Below are positions 6,553-58,765 of a DNA stretch of 64,000 nt, piece by piece. The position numbers and the translations under genes are program-made. The notes under the pieces were generated by a model. It saw only the letters and a program-made list of their open reading frames with translations. It did no database searches and was not told where the DNA came from. Positions within the stretch are counted from its first letter, which is position 1, and the number at the start of each line of letters is the position of its first letter. Source of the DNA: Spirochaetaceae bacterium (GTDB taxonomy: Bacteria; Spirochaetota; Spirochaetia; DSM-27196; SLST01); the NCBI GenBank assembly GCA_007118855.1, contig SKQU01000127.1, positions 5,660 to 69,659 of the forward strand, given 5' to 3'.

Positions 6553-9084
6553 ATGTTCAAGGGTTTGACGCAACGGGCTCAGAAAGTCCTCACGATACTC
6601 GCCCAGGACGAGGCGAAGCGATTTCATTCAGACCAACTGCTGCCGGAACACATCATGCTGGCGCTGTTGAAAGAGGGCGGTGGACTCGGATACAAGGCTC
6701 TTGAGAAGGCCGGGGTAGACCCCGCCAGGATGCAGATCGAGATTGAGAAAGAGATCCCGCGCAAACGGGGCGGTTTCATCCTTGGAGACGTTCCGCCGTC
6801 CGCCCGGGGAAAGAAGGTCCTCGAGGACAGCGCGGAGGAGGCGCGGAACCTCGGGCATGAGTACATCGGGACCGAGCACCTCCTGCTCGCCTGTGCCCGC
6901 GAGTCGGATTGCGTGACGACGCGTTTCCTCGCCGAGTACGGATCCGGCGTCGACGCCCTGCGGGAGATCATCTCGGACCTCAGCGGTTCCGTACAGCCCG
7001 CCGCGAGCAGCGGCACCCCTGCTACCCGCAGCACACAGCAGAAGCGAAAAGGATCAGGACAGGCAACCGCGACGAAGAAGAGCACTCCGACGCTTGATGA
7101 GTTCAGTCGGGACCTGACCCAGTACGCCCGCGACGACAAGCTCGATCCGGTCGTCGGCAGAGGCCGCGAGATCCAGCGTGTGATCCAGATTCTCGCGCGG
7201 CGGACGAAGAACAATCCCGTGCTCATCGGAGAGCCCGGGGTCGGTAAGACTGCGATCGTCGAAGGGCTCGCACAGCGCATCGTCGACGGAAGCGCTCCGG
7301 AGGTCCTGATCGGGAAGCGGGTGATGACGCTCGATCTCGCGTCGCTGATCGCGGGGACCAAGTACCGCGGCGAGTTCGAGGAACGCCTGAAGCGCGTGAT
7401 GAAGGAGATCATCACCGCGGGAAACGTCGTGCTGTTCATCGATGAGCTGCACACCATCATCGGCGCCGGCGGCGCGGAAGGCGCCATTGACGCGAGCAAT
7501 ATGCTCAAGCCCGCGCTTTCGAGAGGCGAGATCCAGTGCATCGGCGCGACGACGCTGAACGAGTACCGGAAGTACGTCGAGAAGGACGCCGCGCTCGAGC
7601 GGCGGTTCCAGACGATCTACGTGGACGAGCCGACGGTCGAAGAGACGCTCGAGATCCTCAAGGGTATCAAGGAGCGCTACGAAGACCATCACAACGTGAG
7701 CTACACGCCGGGCGCACTCGAAGTCTCGGCGCTGCTCTCGCGTCGGTATATCGCCGACCGGTTCCTGCCTGACAAGGCGATCGATCTGATTGACGAGGCG
7801 GGCAGCCGAAAGCGCATTCACAATTCGGTCCGACCCACCGAGCTTGCCGAGCTCGAACGCGAGATCGACAAGCTCAATGCGGAGAAGCTCAGTCTCGTTA
7901 ACAGCCAGAACTACGAGCGTGCCGCCGCCGTCCGCGACCAGGTGCGCCAACTGAAGGCGAAGGTCGAGGAGATGAAGACCCAGTGGAAGGTGACGCTGAA
8001 GACCGAGCAGAACGTCGTGGATTCGGAGGACATCCAGTATGTGCTCTCGGACATGACCGGCATTCCCCTCTCACGCATCGCGCAGAGTGAGAGCGAGAAG
8101 CTGCTGCAGATCGAGGATGAGCTTCACAAGACGGTCGTCGGGCAGGATCCGGCGATTCAGGTCATCTCGTCGGCCATTCGCCGCAGCCGCACCGGGCTCT
8201 CCTCACCGCGTCGCCCCATGGGTTCCTTCGTCTTCCTCGGACCCACCGGCGTGGGCAAGACGCTGCTTGCGAAGACGCTCGCCGAGTTCCTCTTCGGGAG
8301 CGAGGACGCACTGGTGCGGATCGACATGTCCGACTTCATGGAGAAGCACAACGTGAGCCGACTCGTCGGGGCACCTCCGGGGTATGTGGGCTACGACGAA
8401 GGCGGGCTTCTCACCGAGAAGATCAGGCGCAAGCCGTACAGCGTCGTTCTGTTCGACGAGATCGAGAAGGCCCATCCCGACGTCTTCAACATCCTGCTCC
8501 AGGTGCTCGAGGAAGGGCAGCTGCAGGACAGCCTCGGGCATACGGTGAGCTTCAGGAACACGGTGCTGATCATGACGAGCAATGCCGGGGCGCGCGAGAT
8601 CACTCGCGAGTCTTCGGTCGGGTTCAAGACGATTGACGGGCTCATGGACTATCGCGACATCAAGTCGAGTGCGATGAACGAGCTCAAGCGGCTGTTCCGT
8701 CCCGAGTTCATCAACCGCGTCGATGAGATCGTCGTGTTCCACAGCCTCAGCCACGACCAGGTGCGCTCGATCCTCGAGATCGAGCTTGCAGAGGTGCAGA
8801 CGCGCCTCGCCGAGAAGGAGATCACCCTCGAGGTGACCAAGCGAGCGAAGGAACACCTCATCAAGGTCGGCTACGACGTGAAGTTCGGCGCGAGGCCGCT
8901 GAGGCGCACGATCCAGCGCGAGATCGAGGATCCTCTTGCGATGGAAATCCTCAAGGAGCGCTTCGGCGAAGGCAGTCGCGTCGTGGTGACCATCCGGAAC
9001 GAGAAGATCAGCTTCCGGGAGAAGAAGAGCCCGACGAAGGAGCCGGCGGAGGAGCCGGCGGAGGTCACCGCCGCGACAGTATGA
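6553..9084 (+). CDS. clpC: ATP-dependent Clp protease ATP-binding subunit ClpC
   Basis: 843 aa. Double Clp_N repeat, two AAA+ modules (GEPGVGKT; GPTGVGKT) and a UVR-like linker between D1 and D2. RBS GGGAGG upstream. Confidence 0.9.
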
Positions 9085-9135
9085 GTCACCCCAGGACGAG
9101 GCGCATCAGTATGCGGCGCAGCGGGAGCGTTCGGG

Positions 9136-9342
9136 ATGATCCAGTGGTCCTACCTGAGATCGTGCCGCGCCTCGATGATGAGCGCGACCTACGATGTGGC
9201 CTGTGTAGCCGTTCCCCTGCTGCTCGTGCCCTTCATTGTGGGGACGTCGATGGTCGTCCCGTGGTGCGTCGTCGGAGTCGCCCTGCTGGGAGTCGGCGCC
9301 GCACTGACGGCGGGAGGCGAGCGCGAGCGAACACCTGCCTGA
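9136..9342 (+). CDS. Possible small two-helix membrane protein
   Basis: 68-aa ORF (or about 55 aa from ATG 9175) in a 283-nt gap between convergent genes. Hydrophobic hairpin VAVPLLLVPFIV...VVGVALLGVGAAL. Third codon positions are mostly G/C like the real genes. Weak GGGG-cgca-CCCC hairpin after the stop. No strong RBS. Confidence 0.3.
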   Translation: MIQWSYLRSCRASMMSATYDVACVAVPLLLVPFIVGTSMVVPWCVVGVALLGVGAALTAGGERERTPA

Positions 9343-9367
9343 AGTGGGGCGCACCCCCAGCGACGGG

Positions 9368-9931
9368 TCAGTCGTAGCGGTAGCCGCCGGCTTCGTTTTC
9401 GAGCTCGACGCCGAGCGCCAGGACTATGCGATTGACGAAGTTGAAGTACGAGGCGACGAGCGTCGCATCGAGGATTGCCCGGTCGTCGAGACCGCGGGCG
9501 CGCAAGCGTGCGTGCATCGTTACGGCTTCGAGCGACCGGGGCTCCCGGGTGACGAGCGCTGCATACGAGCAGAGCGATCGCTCGCGGTCGCTCAGGTCGT
9601 GGAGCCCGGCTCCTTCGGCGGCCAGCCGACTGACTCGGTCGTGATTCCTCCAGTAGTGGTTGAGCGCATCGCCGTGGTGCGCGACGCAGTATGCGCACTC
9701 GTTTGCCGCTGAGACGACGACCGCCATCATCTCGCGTTCCGCGCGCGAGAGCGGGGAGTGCGAGAACATGACGGTCATGTAGAGATTCATGTGATCGCGA
9801 ATGCTTGCAGGGTTGAGACTCCCGATCTTGTGAACCTCCGCCGGCTTTCCGCGCGACGATGCGAGTTCCTCGTAGATGTCGGCGAGCTCGCCCTGCGCGG
9901 CAGCCGGTTCGATGATGCGTATTCGAGCCAT
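9368..9931 (-). CDS. Carboxymuconolactone decarboxylase / AhpD-like peroxidase-related protein
   Basis: 187 aa with the CMD-family CxxC-x2-H motif (NECAYCVAHHGDAL). Size is typical of 'peroxidase-related enzyme' members. Confidence 0.75.
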   Translation of the reverse strand: MARIRIIEPAAAQGELADIYEELASSRGKPAEVHKIGSLNPASIRDHMNLYMTVMFSHSPLSRAEREMMAVVVSAANECAYCVAHHGDALNHYWRNHDRVSRLAAEGAGLHDLSDRERSLCSYAALVTREPRSLEAVTMHARLRARGLDDRAILDATLVASYFNFVNRIVLALGVELENEAGGYRYD

Positions 9932-50970: not shown

Positions 50971-52152
50971 TCATGCCACCGGCTCCTGCTCGCCCTTCGT
51001 CGCGAGCCGCTTGCGGGCGGGGCACCGCGGCGCCTCCTTGAACCAGTAACAGTGCGGTTCGCAGTGCCGGCACGGCTCGATGGGCCGCTCGTCGAGCCCG
51101 AGCGCCTTGCGCGCCCATGCCGGATCGGCGAGCGTGCCGCGCCCGACGGCCACCAGGTCGGCGATGCCGGCGATGACTGCACGGGCGGCATGGGCGGGGG
51201 TGCGTATTCCCCCGACGCCGATGACCGGGACCGAGACGGCAGTCTTCGCGATTGCCGCGAGCCTCAAGGTGGACGACCAGCCGTCTGCCTCGTCGGCCCG
51301 CCCGGAGCCCTTCGCCGCGAAGTTCGCCGCGAAGCTCGCCGCGATCTGCGAGGCAAGCTCATCATCGATTGGCCCGCCGTGCGAGACGTCCAGCAGATCA
51401 GCTCCCGCCTGCTCCGCTGCGATCGCGGCGACACACCCCTCCTCGAGCGACAGCGAGCTCGGCGGGCTCGCGGCGAGCCCGAGCCGGACGGTGAGCGCGG
51501 CGGAGTCCGCGCGTCCCGCACGGGAGATTTCGTGGCGAACCGATCTCAACGCCTCGAGGAGGAAGCTCCGGCGGGAGTCCGGAGAGCCGCCCCACCGGTC
51601 TGGGCGCCGATTCGTGTCGGGCGAGAGGAACTGGCTGATGAGGTACCCGTGGGCGCCGTGCAGCTCGATCACGCGGAACCCCGCGTCGAGCGCGCGCCGG
51701 GCGGCATGGGCGAAGGAGGCGATCGTGTGCTCGATGTCCTTCGCACTCATCTCAGTCGCTGCGTCAGGGGAACCTCTGACGAGCGACGGGACCCGTGGGG
51801 GCAGCCCGCAGGTGTTCTTGAGGCTGGTGCTGCCGCCTGCGTGATGAAGCTGGATGCCGGGCAGGCCGCCGGCGTCCGCGATGACGCGGGCGAGGCGGCT
51901 GAGTCCGACGATCTGGTCGTCGGACCATGCCCCGAGCTGGGTGGCGGCGAGACGGCCCTCCGGCGCGATCGCGGTTGCCTCCACGACGATCAGCCCGGGG
52001 CCTGCGGAGCGCCGGTAGTGCGCGACGTGGTAGTCGGTGACCATGCCGGTCTCGTCGGCCTTCCAGATGACGAGCGGTGGCATCACGATGCGGTTGGGCG
52101 CGGTGAGCGGGCCGATTCGGACCGGCTGGGAGAGGACGTCTGCGTGCTGCAT
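50971..52152 (-). CDS. NADH:flavin oxidoreductase (Old Yellow Enzyme family) with C-terminal Cys cluster
   Basis: 393 aa from ATG 52152. PNRIVMPPL, ELHGAHGYLISQFLSP TIM-barrel motifs. C-terminal CRHCEPHCYWFKEAPRC (C-x2-C-x3-C-x8-C). Confidence 0.85.
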   Translation of the reverse strand: MQHADVLSQPVRIGPLTAPNRIVMPPLVIWKADETGMVTDYHVAHYRRSAGPGLIVVEATAIAPEGRLAATQLGAWSDDQIVGLSRLARVIADAGGLPGIQLHHAGGSTSLKNTCGLPPRVPSLVRGSPDAATEMSAKDIEHTIASFAHAARRALDAGFRVIELHGAHGYLISQFLSPDTNRRPDRWGGSPDSRRSFLLEALRSVRHEISRAGRADSAALTVRLGLAASPPSSLSLEEGCVAAIAAEQAGADLLDVSHGGPIDDELASQIAASFAANFAAKGSGRADEADGWSSTLRLAAIAKTAVSVPVIGVGGIRTPAHAARAVIAGIADLVAVGRGTLADPAWARKALGLDERPIEPCRHCEPHCYWFKEAPRCPARKRLATKGEQEPVA

Positions 52153-52244
52153 GGTACAGGGAAGTATACCAGGGATGATCCCGTCACCCAAGGCGCGACC
52201 GCCGGCATGGGAATGAGTACTATACGCCGAGGAGGCGAAGCAGT

Positions 52245-53243
52245 ATGTCAGAGATCACCACAACCGTCGTCGGCAGCTACCCGGTTCCCGAGTGGCTGCG
52301 CGCCTATCCGTCCGCGCCCAACCTGCGTGACGCCATTCTCACCGTGCTCAAGACTCAGGAGCTCGCGGGAATCGAGGTCGTCACCGACGGCGAGCTCTCT
52401 CGCTGGAGCGTGAATCATCCGGATACCAACGGGATGATCGAGACCTTCATTGCGCCGCTCGCAGGCGTTCGGACCCGTCTGTCACGCCACGAAATCGCCG
52501 AGTTTCGCTCCATGCCCGGGATGGGCTTTCGTGCGATGCCGGCGGGCGTCGTCGAGGGGCCCCTCACCGAAGGCCTGCTCGATCTGGTTGCCGAATGGCG
52601 TTCCATCCGGGATCTCGCATCGGCGACGCTCAAGTTCACGGTAACCTCTCCCTACATGCTCGCGCGAACGCTGCTCGACCATCACTACCGCGATCTGCCC
52701 ACGCTGACCGCGGCGATCGCCTCCGCGCTCGCGAAGCAGGTTTCGGGGATCGACGCGGCCGTCGTGCAGGTGGATGAGGCGAACCTTCCCGGCAATCCCG
52801 GCGACGGGACCTGGGCGCACGAGCCGATCAACACGGTCCTGGACGCGATCACGGGGGCAAAGGGAATGCACTTCTGCTTCGGCAACTACGGCGGGCAGAG
52901 CATTCAGAGCGGCACATGGGACGACCTGATCGAGTTTTTCAACAAGCTCCATCTCGATCACCTGGTGCTGGAGTTTGCGCGCCGGGGGTACGGGGAGCTC
53001 GAGCGGTTCGGCAGCCTCCGGGAGGACATCCACCTCGGGATCGGCGTGATCGACATCAAGGACAACGAGGTGGAGACGGCGGAAATCGTGGCGAGGAGAA
53101 TCGAGGAAGCGGTCAGGGTGCTCGGACCCGAGCGGGTCCGCTGGGTGCACCCCGACTGCGGATTCTGGATGCTGCCACGCAGCATCGCAGACCGTAAGAT
53201 GGTGAGCCTCGTTGCGGGCCGGGATCTCTACCTGGGTCGCTGA
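52245..53243 (+). CDS. Cobalamin-independent methionine synthase-like protein (short MetE catalytic-domain form)
   Basis: 332 aa. TTVVGSYPVPEWL, VQVDEANL, HFCFGNYGG, VHPDCGFW (Zn-ligand His/Cys pattern of the MetE C-domain family). Confidence 0.75.
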   Translation: MSEITTTVVGSYPVPEWLRAYPSAPNLRDAILTVLKTQELAGIEVVTDGELSRWSVNHPDTNGMIETFIAPLAGVRTRLSRHEIAEFRSMPGMGFRAMPAGVVEGPLTEGLLDLVAEWRSIRDLASATLKFTVTSPYMLARTLLDHHYRDLPTLTAAIASALAKQVSGIDAAVVQVDEANLPGNPGDGTWAHEPINTVLDAITGAKGMHFCFGNYGGQSIQSGTWDDLIEFFNKLHLDHLVLEFARRGYGELERFGSLREDIHLGIGVIDIKDNEVETAEIVARRIEEAVRVLGPERVRWVHPDCGFWMLPRSIADRKMVSLVAGRDLYLGR

Positions 53244-53314: not shown

Positions 53315-55102
53315 CTACACGACCTGCCGGGCCACGTACTTCGTGTGCAGCAGGTGGTGGGAGCGTTCGCCGAGCGGTGCCTTCAGGTAGCGCTCGTAGA
53401 TCTCCGAGATCTGCGGGTTGAGGTGCGACTTGCGCAGCTCCTTCCCCTCGTCCTCGCGGTAGATCGCGGCGATACGCTTGCGCCGGACCTCGTCGGTCGT
53501 CATGCGCGGCTGCCCGCCGCCCCCAATGCATCCGCCCGGGCAGGTCATGATCTCGACGAAGTGGTACTCGCGCTGACCGCTCTTGATCTCTTTGATGAGC
53601 TGCGCTGTGTTGCCGAGCCCATGCGCGACTGCCACCTTGAGCTCCACGCCGTCGAGGAAGCTCCAGTCCGGAAGGGGATCCTCTATGACCAGCGACGCTT
53701 CCTTGATGCCGGCGAGCCCTGCCACCGGTTCGACGTGCAGATTCCCGGTCGGCAACTCGCGACCGGTCACGAGCTCCCACGCGGTGCGAAGCGCCGCCTC
53801 CATGACCCCGCCCGAGTTCGCGAAAATGTCCGCAGCACCCGAGCTCAACCCCATGGGGGCGTCCATCTCGTCGTCGGGCAGCGATCGGAAGTCGATGCCC
53901 GCGGAGGCGATCATCCTCCCGAGCTCCCGCGTCGTGAGAACGTAGTCCACGTCCCGGTAGCCGCTGGCATTCATCTCGTCGCGCGTGGCCTCGAACTTCT
54001 TGGCCGTACACGGCATCACCGACACGACGACCATCTTCTCCGGGTCCACTCCGGCCTGCTCGGCGTAGTAGGTCTTCGCCAGGGCGCCGAACATCTGTTG
54101 CGGCGACTTGCAGGTCGAGAGGTTGGGGAGCATCTCCGGGTAGAAGTACTCGGCGAACTGGATCCAGCCCGGCGAACAGCTCGTGAACTGCGGCAGCGCG
54201 CTGGGTCCGTGGTATCCCTCGGCCTTCCCGGTCAGTGCCGCCTTGAGTCGCATGAGCAGCTCCGTTCCCTCCTCCATGATGGTCAGGTCGGCGGTGAAGT
54301 TCGTGTCGAACACGGCGTGGAAGCCGATCTCGCGCAGCGCGCTCACCATCTTCCCGGTGACCAGCGTGCCCGGCTCGTACCCGAAGCACTCACCGAGCGC
54401 GGCGCGAACGGCCGGAGCGGTCTGGACGACCACGTGTTTCTCCGGATCGTCGAGCGCGCGCCACACACCCTCTATGTGGCTCGCCTCGCTGATCGCGCCG
54501 ACGGGGCAGACCGCGGCGCACTGGCCGCACTGGACGCAGGCGACCGAGTCGAGGTCCATGGCGAAGGCTGGTCCGACCACCGTGTCGTATCCCCGGTACT
54601 GGGGAAAGAGCGCGCCGATCTGCTGCACCTCGTTGCAGACGGTGACGCATCGGCGGCATTTGATGCACTTGCCGGAGTCGCGGATGAGCCCCGGTGTGCT
54701 CGTGTCGAGAACCGACGGGACGCGTTCGCCCTCGTACTCCGGCGCTTCGATCGTCAGATCGTGGGCGATCTCCTTCAGCTCACAGTCCACGCTGCGGTCG
54801 CAGTACTGGCAGTTCCCCTCGTGTTCGCTCAAGAGCAGATCGATCACCGTTCGGCGAGACTGCCGCGCACGGCGGGAGTTCGTGTTGACGACCATGTTGT
54901 CCGTCACGGGCGTTGCGCAGGCGGCCTGGAGTGTCCGCGCGCCCTCAACCTCAACGACGCAGACCCGGCAGGCGCCGAGCGGCGCCCGGTGCTCGAGGAA
55001 GCAGAGGGTGGGAATGGACACCCCTGCCTGCCGGGCGGCGTCGAGTATGGTCGACCCTTCGGCGATCTGAACGTCTTTTCCGTTAATCGTCACGTTATAC
55101 AC
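53315..55102 (-). CDS. hydA: [FeFe]-hydrogenase catalytic subunit (CpI-like M3 architecture)
   Basis: 595 aa. N-terminal 2Fe-2S (CxxxxxxxxxxCxxC), His-ligated 4Fe-4S (HEGNCQYCDRSVDC), 2x 4Fe-4S (CIKCRRCVTVC; CVQCGQCAAVCP). H-domain motifs FTSCSPGW (variant L1), MPCTAKKFE, EIMTCPGGCIGGGGQP. Confidence 0.9.
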   Translation of the reverse strand: MYNVTINGKDVQIAEGSTILDAARQAGVSIPTLCFLEHRAPLGACRVCVVEVEGARTLQAACATPVTDNMVVNTNSRRARQSRRTVIDLLLSEHEGNCQYCDRSVDCELKEIAHDLTIEAPEYEGERVPSVLDTSTPGLIRDSGKCIKCRRCVTVCNEVQQIGALFPQYRGYDTVVGPAFAMDLDSVACVQCGQCAAVCPVGAISEASHIEGVWRALDDPEKHVVVQTAPAVRAALGECFGYEPGTLVTGKMVSALREIGFHAVFDTNFTADLTIMEEGTELLMRLKAALTGKAEGYHGPSALPQFTSCSPGWIQFAEYFYPEMLPNLSTCKSPQQMFGALAKTYYAEQAGVDPEKMVVVSVMPCTAKKFEATRDEMNASGYRDVDYVLTTRELGRMIASAGIDFRSLPDDEMDAPMGLSSGAADIFANSGGVMEAALRTAWELVTGRELPTGNLHVEPVAGLAGIKEASLVIEDPLPDWSFLDGVELKVAVAHGLGNTAQLIKEIKSGQREYHFVEIMTCPGGCIGGGGQPRMTTDEVRRKRIAAIYREDEGKELRKSHLNPQISEIYERYLKAPLGERSHHLLHTKYVARQVV

Positions 55103-58100
55103 GGAGTTCCTCCCGGACTGGTTCTACCTGGGCCGCTGCCGGCTTTCCGTAATCGCAGCGCAGGCAACGCTTGGCCTGGCGCAGGGCGACCGCCTCGCAC
55201 CAGGATTGTTCAACCTCGTCGAAGTTATGACGCCGTCGTCCGACTTCGATCGTCTGATACGGCTCTCGCGGATACGGCGCAGGGTCGGCCTCGGAGTCGA
55301 ATGCGGTGTCGATGGTCTCTGCCTTGCGCCAGAAGGCATGCGACTCTCCCGTCAGGTACAGATCGATTCCGACCGCGGCTCGCTCTCCGGCGGCAATCGC
55401 CGTGACTACGGAGGCGGGTCCGCTCGCCGCATCACCGCCTGCAAAGATCCACGGCACGCTCGTCTGGCCGGTCAGCGGATGGATGCCGATGAAGCCGTCG
55501 GGGGTCATCTCGAGCTCGCTCCCGAGCGCCAGGTCGGGCTGCACGAGCGGCGTGAGATCGAGTGTCTGGCCAATCGCCACGATGACCTGGTCCGCCGGCA
55601 GCTCGAATTCGTCGTGCTCGGAGCGCTGCGGCCGGCGTCGTCCCGAACGGTCGAACTCGCCGAGTGTCATGCGGGCGCACGTGATCGTCCGTGCCTTGCC
55701 TTCCTCGTCCACGTTGACCCGAAGCGGCTGGGTCAGGTCACGGAGCTCGACGCCTTCGTGCAGCGCTTCTTCGATCTCCTCGGCGTAGGCCGGCATCTGC
55801 TCGCGCGTGCGGCGGTAGATGACCGTGACCGTTTCGGCGCCGAGCCGAAGCGCGGTGCGTGCCGCATCGATCGCGGCGTTGCCGCCACCGACGACGACCG
55901 TGTTCTTGCCGACCGGAACCGAGCCGCGGATGTTGTACTGGCGCAGGTAGTCTCCTGCGAGGACCACCCCGTCGGCGTCCTCTCCCGGTACTCCCATGGC
56001 CTGGCAGCCCGGGGCTCCCACGCCGAGGAAAACGGTGTCGTACCCGTCGTCCTGCAGGCTGCCGAGGGTGAAGTCGCGGCCGAGCGCGGTTCCCGTCCGG
56101 ATTTCGACGCCGAGCTGCTCGATCATGCGAATTTCGCGCGCGAGCGTCTCGCGCGGAAGCCGGTACGCGGGAATCGTCTGAACGAGCATGCCGCCGGGTC
56201 GGGACTCGGCCTCAAAGACCGTGGGGCGGTACCCGAGGCGCGCAAGGAAGTACGCGCAGGAGAGGCCCGCGGGCCCCGCGCCGACGATCGCGATCTTTCG
56301 TTTCTCGTTCTCCGGCGATTCGCGGACCTCGGGCGTCTGGATGACGACTTCCTGGTCAACCATGAACCTCTTGACCGCGCGGATGGCTACCGGCTCGTCG
56401 AGCGAGGATCGTCGGCAGTGGTCCTCGCAGGTGTGGAAGCAGACCCGGGCGCAGACGGCCGCGAAGGGATTGCGCTCGCGGTGTACCTGCAGCGCCTCCG
56501 CGTACCGCCGTTCGGCGATCAGGGAGACGAAGCCGGGGACGTCCACGCCGGCCGGACACGCGCTCTGGCAGGGTGCGCGTACCAGCCCCGGGCAGACTCC
56601 TGCCTCGCAGTGCTTCTCCCGGATGTGCGCCTCGTACTCGTGGCGGAAGTGACGAATCGTGGAGAGCACGGGATTGGGCGCCGTCTGTCCGAGCCCGCAG
56701 AGCGAGGTGTCCTTGATCCGCTCTCCGAGTTCGATGAGGCGGTCGATATCGTCCGGTCTGCCGTGGCCGGAGGTGATTCTGTCGAGGATTTCGAGCATCC
56801 GCCGTGTGCCGACGCGACACGGGACGCACTTCCCGCACGACTCCTCCTGGACGAACTCGAGGAAGTAGCGCGCCACGTCGACCATGCAGGTCTCGTCGTC
56901 CATCACGATGAGTCCGCCCGAACCCATGATTGCTCCGAGCTCCTGGAGCGACTCGTAGTCGAGCGGAATGTTCAGATGCTCGCGCGGCACGCAGCCGCCG
57001 GAGGGGCCGCCGATCTGTGCGGCCTTGAATGCGCGTCCGCCCCGGACGCCGCCGCCTATGTCGTAGATCAGCTCACCAAGGGTCGTGCCAATGGGAACCT
57101 CAACGAGACCGGTATTCTCAACGGCTCCCGCGAGCGCGAAGACCTTCGTGCCGGGGCTGTCAGCGGTCCCGATAGCCCGCCATTGTCCTCCGCGCGTCAT
57201 GATGGCGGCGACATTGGCGTAGGTCTCGACGTTGTTCAGGACGCTCGGCCTTCCCCAGAGCCCTTTCTGGGCGGGAAAGGGCGGTCGCGGGCGCGGCTCG
57301 CCGCGCTTGCCTTCGATCGAGTTCATCAGTGCGGTCTCTTCTCCGCAGACGAAGGCGCCTGATCCCTTGCGGATCTCCAGGTCGAACGAGAACCCGCTGC
57401 CGAGGATATCCTCGCCGAGCAGCCCGTATTCGCGGGCCTGGCCGAGTGCGACCTCGAGCCGCTCAATGGCAAGCGGGTACTCGGCGCGAACGTAGACGAA
57501 CCCGCGGACTGCGCCGATCGCCCGTGCGGCGATCGTCATTCCCTCGATCAGGCTGTGCGGATCGCCTTCGAGAATGCTGCGATCCATGAACGCGCCGGGA
57601 TCACCCTCGTCGGCGTTGCAGATCACGTACTTCGCACCGTCCTCCGACTGCGCGTCGCGCGTGAACCGCCACTTCATCCAGGTGGGAAATCCGGCGCCTC
57701 CGCGTCCCCGCAGGCCGGATTCCCTCATCCGCTCGATGATCGCGTCGGGGTCGAGCTTCAGGGCCTCCGCGAGCGCCGCGTACGCCTCATGCGAGATCGC
57801 ATCGTCAATACTGCCCGGGTCCACCGTACCGCAACGTGCAAGGACCGTGCGCGTCTGCGCGTCGAGGAAGGTCTGCACGTCGTCGACCGCATCCCGTTCC
57901 TTGCCGGACAGCGCCTCCTCGATGATACGGTCGATGTCCTGCGGCTCCACATGCGTGTAGCTTCGGCCGGAGGGCAGGACCGTGACGACCGGGCCGCGCG
58001 AGCACGGCCCCATGCAGCCGGTCCCCACGAGCTCGACGGTGCCGTTGCGTTCCGCCAACCGCGCCCGCAGGCGCTCGAGCACCTCGTCGGCCCCTGATGC

Positions 58101-58220
58101 GATACAGCTCGCGCCCATGCAGACACGAAACCGGTGTTCGCACCGGGCCGCGTGCCTGGAACGCTCATCCCGCAGGCTGTGGAGGTCGGCCTGTGTGTTG
58201 ATTCGTCGGTTCGCGCTCAT
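55095..58220 (-). CDS. hydB: HydB-like NuoF-type flavoprotein fused to a GltD/NfnB-like FAD/NAD(P)H oxidoreductase module
   Basis: 1041 aa. N-terminal Trx-like 2Fe-2S (CMGASC...GCMGPC). NuoF motifs GRGGAGFPTWMKW, ICNADEGDPGAF, ESCGKCVPCRVG. Then a GltD-type Fe-S segment (CQSACPAG...CARVCFHTCEDHC), FAD fold IAIVGAGPAGLSCAY and a second Rossmann VVVGGGNAAIDAAR. ATGA overlap with hydC and an 8-nt overlap with hydA. Confidence 0.85.
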   Translation of the reverse strand: MSANRRINTQADLHSLRDERSRHAARCEHRFRVCMGASCIASGADEVLERLRARLAERNGTVELVGTGCMGPCSRGPVVTVLPSGRSYTHVEPQDIDRIIEEALSGKERDAVDDVQTFLDAQTRTVLARCGTVDPGSIDDAISHEAYAALAEALKLDPDAIIERMRESGLRGRGGAGFPTWMKWRFTRDAQSEDGAKYVICNADEGDPGAFMDRSILEGDPHSLIEGMTIAARAIGAVRGFVYVRAEYPLAIERLEVALGQAREYGLLGEDILGSGFSFDLEIRKGSGAFVCGEETALMNSIEGKRGEPRPRPPFPAQKGLWGRPSVLNNVETYANVAAIMTRGGQWRAIGTADSPGTKVFALAGAVENTGLVEVPIGTTLGELIYDIGGGVRGGRAFKAAQIGGPSGGCVPREHLNIPLDYESLQELGAIMGSGGLIVMDDETCMVDVARYFLEFVQEESCGKCVPCRVGTRRMLEILDRITSGHGRPDDIDRLIELGERIKDTSLCGLGQTAPNPVLSTIRHFRHEYEAHIREKHCEAGVCPGLVRAPCQSACPAGVDVPGFVSLIAERRYAEALQVHRERNPFAAVCARVCFHTCEDHCRRSSLDEPVAIRAVKRFMVDQEVVIQTPEVRESPENEKRKIAIVGAGPAGLSCAYFLARLGYRPTVFEAESRPGGMLVQTIPAYRLPRETLAREIRMIEQLGVEIRTGTALGRDFTLGSLQDDGYDTVFLGVGAPGCQAMGVPGEDADGVVLAGDYLRQYNIRGSVPVGKNTVVVGGGNAAIDAARTALRLGAETVTVIYRRTREQMPAYAEEIEEALHEGVELRDLTQPLRVNVDEEGKARTITCARMTLGEFDRSGRRRPQRSEHDEFELPADQVIVAIGQTLDLTPLVQPDLALGSELEMTPDGFIGIHPLTGQTSVPWIFAGGDAASGPASVVTAIAAGERAAVGIDLYLTGESHAFWRKAETIDTAFDSEADPAPYPREPYQTIEVGRRRHNFDEVEQSWCEAVALRQAKRCLRCDYGKPAAAQVEPVREELRV

Positions 58221-58765
58221 TCGGCAACTCCTTCTGTGACCAGATCCGTCTCGTGCTCCTCGTTCTCCTCCTCGCGGTACGAGGCGAGTAGCTCGCGGAC
58301 TCGAGCGGGTTTCACCCGTTGATGCACGTCGTCGTCGACCATCACAACCGGCGCAAGCCCGCAGGCGCCGAAACAGCGTCCGATCTCGAGCGAGAAGAGG
58401 CGATCCTCAGTCGTCTGACCGACCTCGATTCCGAGCTCATGCCGCAGTGCGGCGAGCACTTCCTGTCCTCCGCGGACATAGCAGGCGGTGCCGAGGCATA
58501 CCCGGATGAGGCGGCGCCCGCGAGGGACGGTCGAGAAGAACGAGTAGAAGGTCACCACCCCCGCAACTTCGCTGAAGGGAATGTCGAGTCGCCTGCTGAT
58601 GTGGCGGATCACCTCGTCCGGCAGGTACCCGAAGAGCTCCTGCGCCCGCTGGAGAGCCGGGATGAGCAGTCCCTTGACATCCTTTCGCTCGTCAATGAAG
58701 CGGTCGAGCTCGGCAAGCTTGACCTGGTCCACCTCTTCGGCACACTGGTTGTTCTGCCGCACCAT
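58217..58765 (-). CDS. hydC: NuoE/HydC-like thioredoxin-fold [2Fe-2S] subunit
   Basis: 182 aa, RBS AAAGGAG. LIPALQRAQELFGYLP, CLGTACYVRG...CFGACGLAPV cysteine pattern. Confidence 0.85.
   Translation of the reverse strand: MVRQNNQCAEEVDQVKLAELDRFIDERKDVKGLLIPALQRAQELFGYLPDEVIRHISRRLDIPFSEVAGVVTFYSFFSTVPRGRRLIRVCLGTACYVRGGQEVLAALRHELGIEVGQTTEDRLFSLEIGRCFGACGLAPVVMVDDDVHQRVKPARVRELLASYREEENEEHETDLVTEGVAE

Follow-up and report, generated by a model that had tools for sequence, protein, structure and literature searches.

Within a 64,000-nucleotide stretch of contig SKQU01000127.1 from a Spirochaetaceae bacterium (the window; G+C content 65%), the gene hydA (positions 53315 to 55102, minus strand) encodes a 595-residue catalytic subunit of a HydA-type [FeFe]-hydrogenase, in which the L1 motif of the H-cluster, at the active site, reads TSCSP in place of TSCCP. 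Taken together, the alignments, the homologue surveys and the published structures indicate that this HydA is very probably a normal, catalytically competent subunit of a HydABC-type hydrogenase, belonging to a large clade that naturally carries Ser at the position of the second L1 Cys. The natural TSCSP variant is already known, having been noted in 2013 and found in the cryo-electron microscopy (cryo-EM) structure of an active enzyme in 2023.

Identification of HydA as a group A [FeFe]-hydrogenase

As judged from its sequence, the open reading frame (ORF) at 53315 to 55102 is an [FeFe]-hydrogenase with a group A H-domain, in agreement with the first-pass annotation of this DNA and with matches in Pfam, NCBIfam, PDB and Foldseek. 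The order of domains by Pfam is an N-terminal [2Fe-2S] domain, a NuoG-type [4Fe-4S] domain, a 2x[4Fe-4S] ferredoxin domain, the H-domain and a small-subunit-like C-terminus, the matches being Fe_hyd_lg_C (2e-95), Fe_hyd_SSU (7.5e-23), Fer2_4, NADH-G_4Fe-4S_3 and Fer4_7. The N-terminal set of Fer2_4, NADH-G_4Fe-4S_3 and 2x[4Fe-4S] domains is typical of M3-type HydA. By curated models the H-domain scored 319 bits against PF02906 and 81 bits against PF02256, and the protein scored 513 bits against TIGR02512, for which the cutoff is 406. Against the NCBIfam model NF040763 ("NADH-dependent [FeFe] hydrogenase, group A6"), HydA scored 865.3 bits (cutoff, 765) over profile positions 2-571 of 571. The same model takes in HydA1 of Acetobacterium woodii (TSCSP, 871 bits) and HydA1 of Thermoanaerobacter kivui (TSCCP, 851 bits), indicating that both the Cys and the Ser state occur inside the family.

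The best matches in PDB were 7q4v_A of A. woodii (E=2.9e-176) and 8a6t_A of T. kivui (E=6.4e-175), followed by the Clostridium pasteurianum enzyme CpI. An AlphaFold2 model of HydA (mean predicted local distance difference test score, 75) gave 8a6t_A and 7q4w_A as the top Foldseek matches; the Fe-S loops of this model are of low confidence, and it supports the fold only.

Serine at the ligand position of the L1 motif

Translation of the gene from its start at 55102 reads ...ALPQFTSCSPGWIQF... around L1, also given as ...GPSALPQFTSCSPGWIQFAEYF.... The minus-strand codons are ACG (54184-54182), AGC (54181-54179), TGT (54178-54176), TCG (54175-54173) and CCG (54172-54170), so that the motif T307-S308-C309-S310-P311 occupies positions 54170 to 54184 of the minus strand, exactly as first annotated. 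Besides this direct reading, the motif was followed through the homologues by motif search and pairwise alignment. When aligned by HMMER with CpI, T. kivui HydA1 and A. woodii HydA1, the protein shows no gap between a point roughly 10 residues ahead of L1 and one well beyond the motif. Since no gap is present across F-T-S-C-[C/S]-P-G/S-W and its flanks, Ser310 (codon TCG, 54173 to 54175, minus strand) falls on the second L1 Cys, a ligand of the [4Fe-4S]H subcluster, and Cys309 (codon TGT, 54176 to 54178, minus strand) falls on the proton-relay Cys, C299 in CpI. The residues that correspond to Ser310 are C300 of CpI, C170 of CrHydA1, Cys299 of T. kivui and Ser301 of A. woodii; the A. woodii numbering in the HMMER alignment ends at S301 within "ITSCS", and the A. 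woodii sequence reads ITSCSPGW. Ungapped alignments to all three reference enzymes thus bear out the earlier placing of the Ser at the ligand position.

The rest of the active site is intact, and L2 and L3 are canonical, as previously annotated. Translation and motif search located L2 as MPCTAKKFE (residues 363-371; 53990 to 54016, minus strand), with the ligand Cys365 and with Lys368, and L3 as EIMTCPGGCIGGGG (residues 517-530; 53513 to 53554, minus strand), with the ligand Cys521 and the bridging Cys525. L2 fits the pattern MPCxxKxxE and L3 fits ExMxCxxGCxxGGG. Among the four ligands of the [4Fe-4S]H subcluster (C300, C355, C499 and C503 in CpI), three are Cys in the window protein (C365, C521 and C525) and the fourth is Ser310. 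All residues of the proton pathway, C309, E278, S329, E281 and R285 (C299, E279, S319, E282 and R286 in CpI), are present, and they are conserved in 120 of 120 close homologues, the set being the 120 best database matches at 69-100% identity. The same full conservation was observed for C365, C521, the bridging C525, K368, M363, M519, P334 and Q335. The textbook motif of four Cys is too strict as a criterion for membership in group A, because A. woodii HydA1, an accepted active member, deviates from it in the same way.

Two other features were noted near L1. An extra Cys, C331, lies in "LSTCKSPQ" (54110-54112, minus strand), two residues after the proton-pathway Ser329 and at the position of Ala321 in CpI; it is invariant in the close clade of homologues. 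The proton-pathway helix (IMEEGTEL...R) is joined to L1 by a loop (residues 281-306; 54185-54262, minus strand) that varies in length. Compared with A. woodii HydA1 or CpI the loop has 11 additional residues, and compared with T. kivui HydA1 it has 6. Among homologues the distance between IMEEGTE and L1 ranges from 21 to 41 residues, and the confidence of the AlphaFold2 model in this loop is only moderate.

Distribution of the serine among homologues

The exact protein was found in five independent assemblies, three from NCBI (GCA_007124615.1, GCA_007132295.1 and GCA_003563635.1) and two from ENA (ERZ27301261 and ERZ27301263). All five of these independently assembled contigs carry the same TCG codon together with ACGAGCTGTTCGCCG, and differ from the window by single-nucleotide polymorphisms elsewhere. 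By pairwise alignment, Ser occupies the position of Ser310 in every one of the 120 closest homologues, and motif search recovered SCSPGW in 119 of them; the closest named relatives are metagenome-assembled genomes (MAGs) of Spirochaetota, at 76-80% identity. The Ser is thus not a strain-specific singleton, a possibility raised at first annotation, and on the sequences compared it is the rule in the clade of the window protein.

For a wider survey of taxa, 80 loci were taken from species-representative (GTDB representative) genomes, giving 64 Ser-type versus 5 Cys-type H-domains. The loci belong to Spirochaetota, Lentisphaeraceae, Verrucomicrobiota, Hydrogenedentota, Planctomycetota, Kiritimatiellia, Omnitrophota, Thermoleophilia, Bacteroidales, Bacillota and Deltaproteobacteria, with more than 10 phyla or classes overall. 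All six Ser codons are used by the 64 Ser-type H-domains (TCG 22, TCA 14, TCT 11, TCC 8, AGC 6 and AGT 3). The frequency of the two states was estimated by searching, without filters, 1.84 billion representatives of 50%-identity clusters: of the best 150, about 127 of them scorable, 29 carried C-S and 98 carried C-C, the Ser share in these nearest clusters being about a fifth. A crude neighbor-joining tree with Fitch parsimony required at least 18 changes between Cys and Ser, on sequences of 50% identity or less that resolve poorly. This suggests that the site has flipped repeatedly, even though the tree is too weak for counting origins; the one conclusion drawn from it is that the clade of the window protein is uniformly Ser.

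One locus, L017 (JAFGTF010000072.1, a Spirochaetes MAG), encodes at its positions 7946-9718 a 65%-identical relative with the canonical TSCCPAW beside a HydB fused to a GltD-like module, and is a natural Cys-state comparator within an otherwise Ser-type group. Four further loci, three from Thermoleophilia MAGs (L018, L037 and L068) and one from a Deltaproteobacteria MAG (L045), encode two TSCSPGW H-domain proteins within about 17 kb. In each of these pairs one protein carries "SSAKSPQ" or "STAKSPQ" and the other "S[ST]CKSPQ".

Published precedents and the proposed role of Ser310

The closest characterized system is HydA1 from the electron-bifurcating HydABC(D) complex of A. woodii (PDB 7Q4V, 7Q4W and 8A5E), in which Ser301 replaces the Cys ligand while the infrared signatures of the H-cluster and the activity are normal (Katsyv et al., JACS 2023, PMC10021017). 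The assignment of Ser301 as a ligand comes from cryo-EM; the enzyme shows the canonical Hox, Hred, HoxH and Hhyd states, and it resembles the Cys-class T. kivui enzyme both in its infrared signatures and in its catalytic activities (PMC10021017). The window HydA shares with it the same full-length architecture at about 52% identity (E=2.9e-176), an identical TSCSPGW, the same L2, L3 and proton pathway, and membership in NF040763, and differs from it in the longer loop before L1, in its partner HydB and in coming from an uncultured bacterium of high G+C content. With T. kivui HydA1 (PDB 8A6T) and CpI (for example 4XDC) the protein shares the fold, the order of domains, the other three ligands, the relay Cys and the proton pathway, but these two enzymes carry TSCCP with a thiolate ligand, Cys299 in T. 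kivui and C300 in CpI.

The same substitution at the same ligand position has been engineered in CrHydA1. The C170S protein has a wild-type-like [4Fe-4S] occupancy and slow [2Fe] uptake (Kertess et al., Chem Sci 2017, PMC5855289); its activity, once maturation has run for 30 h, is 231 versus 728 umol H2/min/mg, with a bias towards H2 evolution (PMC5855289). Unlike the natural variant, C170S is an artificial mutant in a Cys-adapted scaffold, in which insertion of [2Fe] is slow and partial and activity is reduced. In Melainabacteria, trimeric confurcating hydrogenases were described as having "TSCSPGW rather than TSCCPAW" (Di Rienzi et al., eLife 2013, PMC3787301). These two NuoEF-linked trimeric enzymes of ACD20 agree with the window protein in L1, but they also lack one L3 Cys, in contrast to the complete L3 found here. 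We found no later literature on the Ser ligand beyond the two papers cited. The first-pass annotation had treated TSCSP as unusual; the variant was previously described and is widespread. Among the explanations offered with it, ligation by Ser is the one that matches the experimentally characterized precedent, Ser301 of A. woodii HydA1 (PMC10021017).

By analogy with A. woodii HydA1 and C170S, Ser310 would offer an oxygen donor, in place of the thiolate, to one of the Fe atoms in the [4Fe-4S]H subcluster, giving coordination by three Cys and one Ser, and Cys525 would bridge to the [2Fe]H subcluster. Protons would travel along R285, E281, S329, E278 and C309 to the azadithiolate (adt) amine, and electrons would leave via the F-clusters to HydB and HydC. 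H2 turnover would be normal, as in the 52%-identical A. woodii HydA1. If the Ser has any functional effect, it may be to adjust cluster potential, catalytic bias or the kinetics of maturation modestly while leaving the function itself unchanged, though this is speculative.

Organization of the hydC-hydB-hydA operon

Upstream of hydA on the same strand lie hydB (55095 to 58220, minus strand), which overlaps the start of hydA by 8 nt, and hydC (58217 to 58765, minus strand), which overlaps the start of hydB by 4 nt. HydC is a 182-residue NuoE-like [2Fe-2S] subunit (Pfam 2Fe-2S_thioredx, 1.3e-48; NCBIfam NuoE/HoxE models). HydB is a 1041-residue NuoF-like subunit for flavin mononucleotide (FMN) and NADH, with an N-terminal [2Fe-2S] domain and a C-terminal GltD-like fusion; its matches are Complex1_51K (1.5e-47), NADH_4Fe-4S (2.8e-36), Pyr_redox_2 (1.5e-32), Fer4_20 (5e-22) and 2Fe-2S_thioredx in Pfam, and nuoF_fam and PRK12771/PRK12814 in NCBIfam. 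From the gene order and the overlaps, this set is, by sequence, an operon for a HydABC-type multimeric NuoEF-linked hydrogenase.

Characterized bifurcating enzymes carry a 2x[4Fe-4S] ferredoxin-like domain at the C-terminus of HydB. In the window HydB, NADH_4Fe-4S (residues 448-532) is instead followed by Fer4_20 (535-624) and Pyr_redox_2 (642-945), forming a GltD-like module for NAD(P)H and flavin adenine dinucleotide (FAD). Roughly 30 of the 80 related loci, spread over many phyla, show the arrangement hydC-hydB::gltD-hydA. A comparable enlarged HydB, with the GltD domain after the FMN/NADH domain and beside a trimeric-type HydA, has been described in Vallitalea guaymasensis, where it is known from genome annotation only, and the genome paper suggested that it provides a second NAD(P)H site (PMC6163223). 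Our literature search found no biochemistry on HydB::GltD, and the arrangement is remarked on once, in that Vallitalea paper. A strict link between the Ser state and the GltD-fused HydB was considered and rejected: the Bacteroidales loci and A. woodii combine Ser with an ordinary HydB, and L017 combines Cys with a GltD-fused HydB.

Evaluation of alternative explanations

Three points weigh against HydA being an ordinary catalytic subunit with a Ser ligand. The proposed Fe-O(Ser) coordination is carried over from a cryo-EM model of a homologue of 52% identity. The GltD-like C-terminus, in place of the usual ferredoxin-like one, sets HydB apart from that of A. woodii, and the complex may therefore have a different physiology. 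No maturase gene of the HydE or HydG (radical SAM) type or of the HydF type was found among the 43 ORFs scanned in the 64-kb window, although such genes commonly lie elsewhere.

A more far-reaching proposal, which we hold only tentatively and consider rather unlikely, is that the exchange of Cys for Ser is an adaptive tuning of [4Fe-4S]H potential, of catalytic bias or of behaviour towards O2 or in maturation, fixed in a very large multi-phylum clade of NuoEF-linked hydrogenases, and that in this operon it acts alongside the HydB::GltD fusion, which would supply a second NAD(P)H site. If this were true, the tuned Ser ligand and the second NAD(P)H site of HydB::GltD would together define a type of hydrogenase without biochemical precedent.

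It is less probable still that Ser310 sits at the ligand position without binding iron, the fourth site being taken by water or hydroxide, by another residue or by none, as in a three-Cys cubane. The cryo-EM origin of the A. woodii assignment (PMC10021017) leaves some room for this reading, as does the nearby C331 of STCKSPQ, invariant in the close homologues. The A. woodii authors, however, model and describe Ser301 as a ligand (PMC10021017), and CrHydA1 C170A accepts no [2Fe] whereas C170S and C170D do (PMC5855289), indicating that the oxygen donor matters and disfavoring a solvent ligand. C331 was examined as a compensating ligand and rejected: a Cys is present at this site in 54 of the 98 Cys-class representatives and in 21 of the 29 Ser-class ones, the remaining 8 lacking it, and some Ser-class proteins carry Ala or Thr there. 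Mutual information computed for every H-domain column over 108 representatives gave no convincing column covarying with the Cys or Ser state; the highest score, 0.21 bit, came from columns that are multi-state and surface-like.

A shift of register, also proposed at first annotation, would make Cys309 the cubane ligand at the cost of the relay Cys, with proton transfer impaired or the mechanism altered. L1 retains just one Cys, which, judged by sequence only, might take either role. Against this, no insertion or deletion is present over F-T-S-C-S-P-G-W or the conserved flanks relative to CpI, T. kivui and A. woodii. The A. woodii structure places Ser, not the preceding Cys, at the ligand position in an active enzyme (PMC10021017), whereas exchange of the relay Cys for Ser is reported to give a completely inactive enzyme (review PMC11376134). 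In addition, C309 and the remaining proton pathway are invariant in all 120 homologues, and such conservation would be pointless without the terminal relay Cys. We therefore consider a register shift very improbable.

Equally slight is the chance that HydA is a sensory or otherwise non-catalytic paralogue (HydS-like, group C/D), as the early annotation had also suggested. Sensory hydrogenases typically show deviating H-cluster motifs, with the relay Cys and the proton pathway altered. The deviation in L1 recalls this pattern, but here the relay Cys and the pathway are intact. Pfam detected no PAS or other signalling domain in a protein with the architecture of a catalytic M3-type HydA, the scores are above the cutoffs of the group A and A6 models, NF040763 included, and the gene is translationally coupled to those for NuoF- and NuoE-like subunits.

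Finally, a sequencing or assembly error, suspected from the start as TCG and TGC differ by a GC/CG dinucleotide inversion, is effectively refuted and retains next to no probability: five assemblies that differ from the window elsewhere agree on TCG, all 120 homologues carry Ser, and the orthologues also use TCA, TCT, TCC, AGC and AGT, the last two not being reachable from TGC by such an inversion.

Neighboring genes and other observations

Directly downstream of hydA are genes for an Old-Yellow-Enzyme-type NADH:flavin oxidoreductase with a Cys-rich C-terminus (50971-52191, minus strand) and a MetE-like (Meth_synt_2) protein (52245-53243, plus strand), and both recur in all near-identical assemblies long enough to show them. 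The surrounding genes of the window are housekeeping ones: serS, a clpB-like gene, gyrase/topoisomerase subunits, a prfC-like gene, sucCD, floA/nfeD and genes for an sdhA/frdA-like flavoprotein, a Ser/Thr kinase and a MutS-related protein.

Outside the window, the search of cluster representatives returned a predicted protein of 4122 residues (P0121) in which seven H-domains are arrayed in tandem. Of these, six are nearly identical, recur with a period of 444 residues and all read FTSCCASW; the protein also contains three flavodoxin domains and a CysJ-like FAD_binding_1 domain. P0121 is either an extraordinary tandem multi-hydrogenase fusion or an artefact of the gene model or assembly.

Significance of the serine variant

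The TSCSP of the window is that of an ordinary catalytic HydA with a known natural variant of the Ser ligand, and carries little weight as a discovery. For annotators and motif screens, TSCSP should not be taken to indicate a defect, an error or a sensory hydrogenase. Pairs of Ser and Cys enzymes that occur naturally in a single clade, for instance the hydA described here and the TSCCPAW relative at L017, would be good material for examining the effect of an oxygen ligand on cluster potential and catalytic bias.

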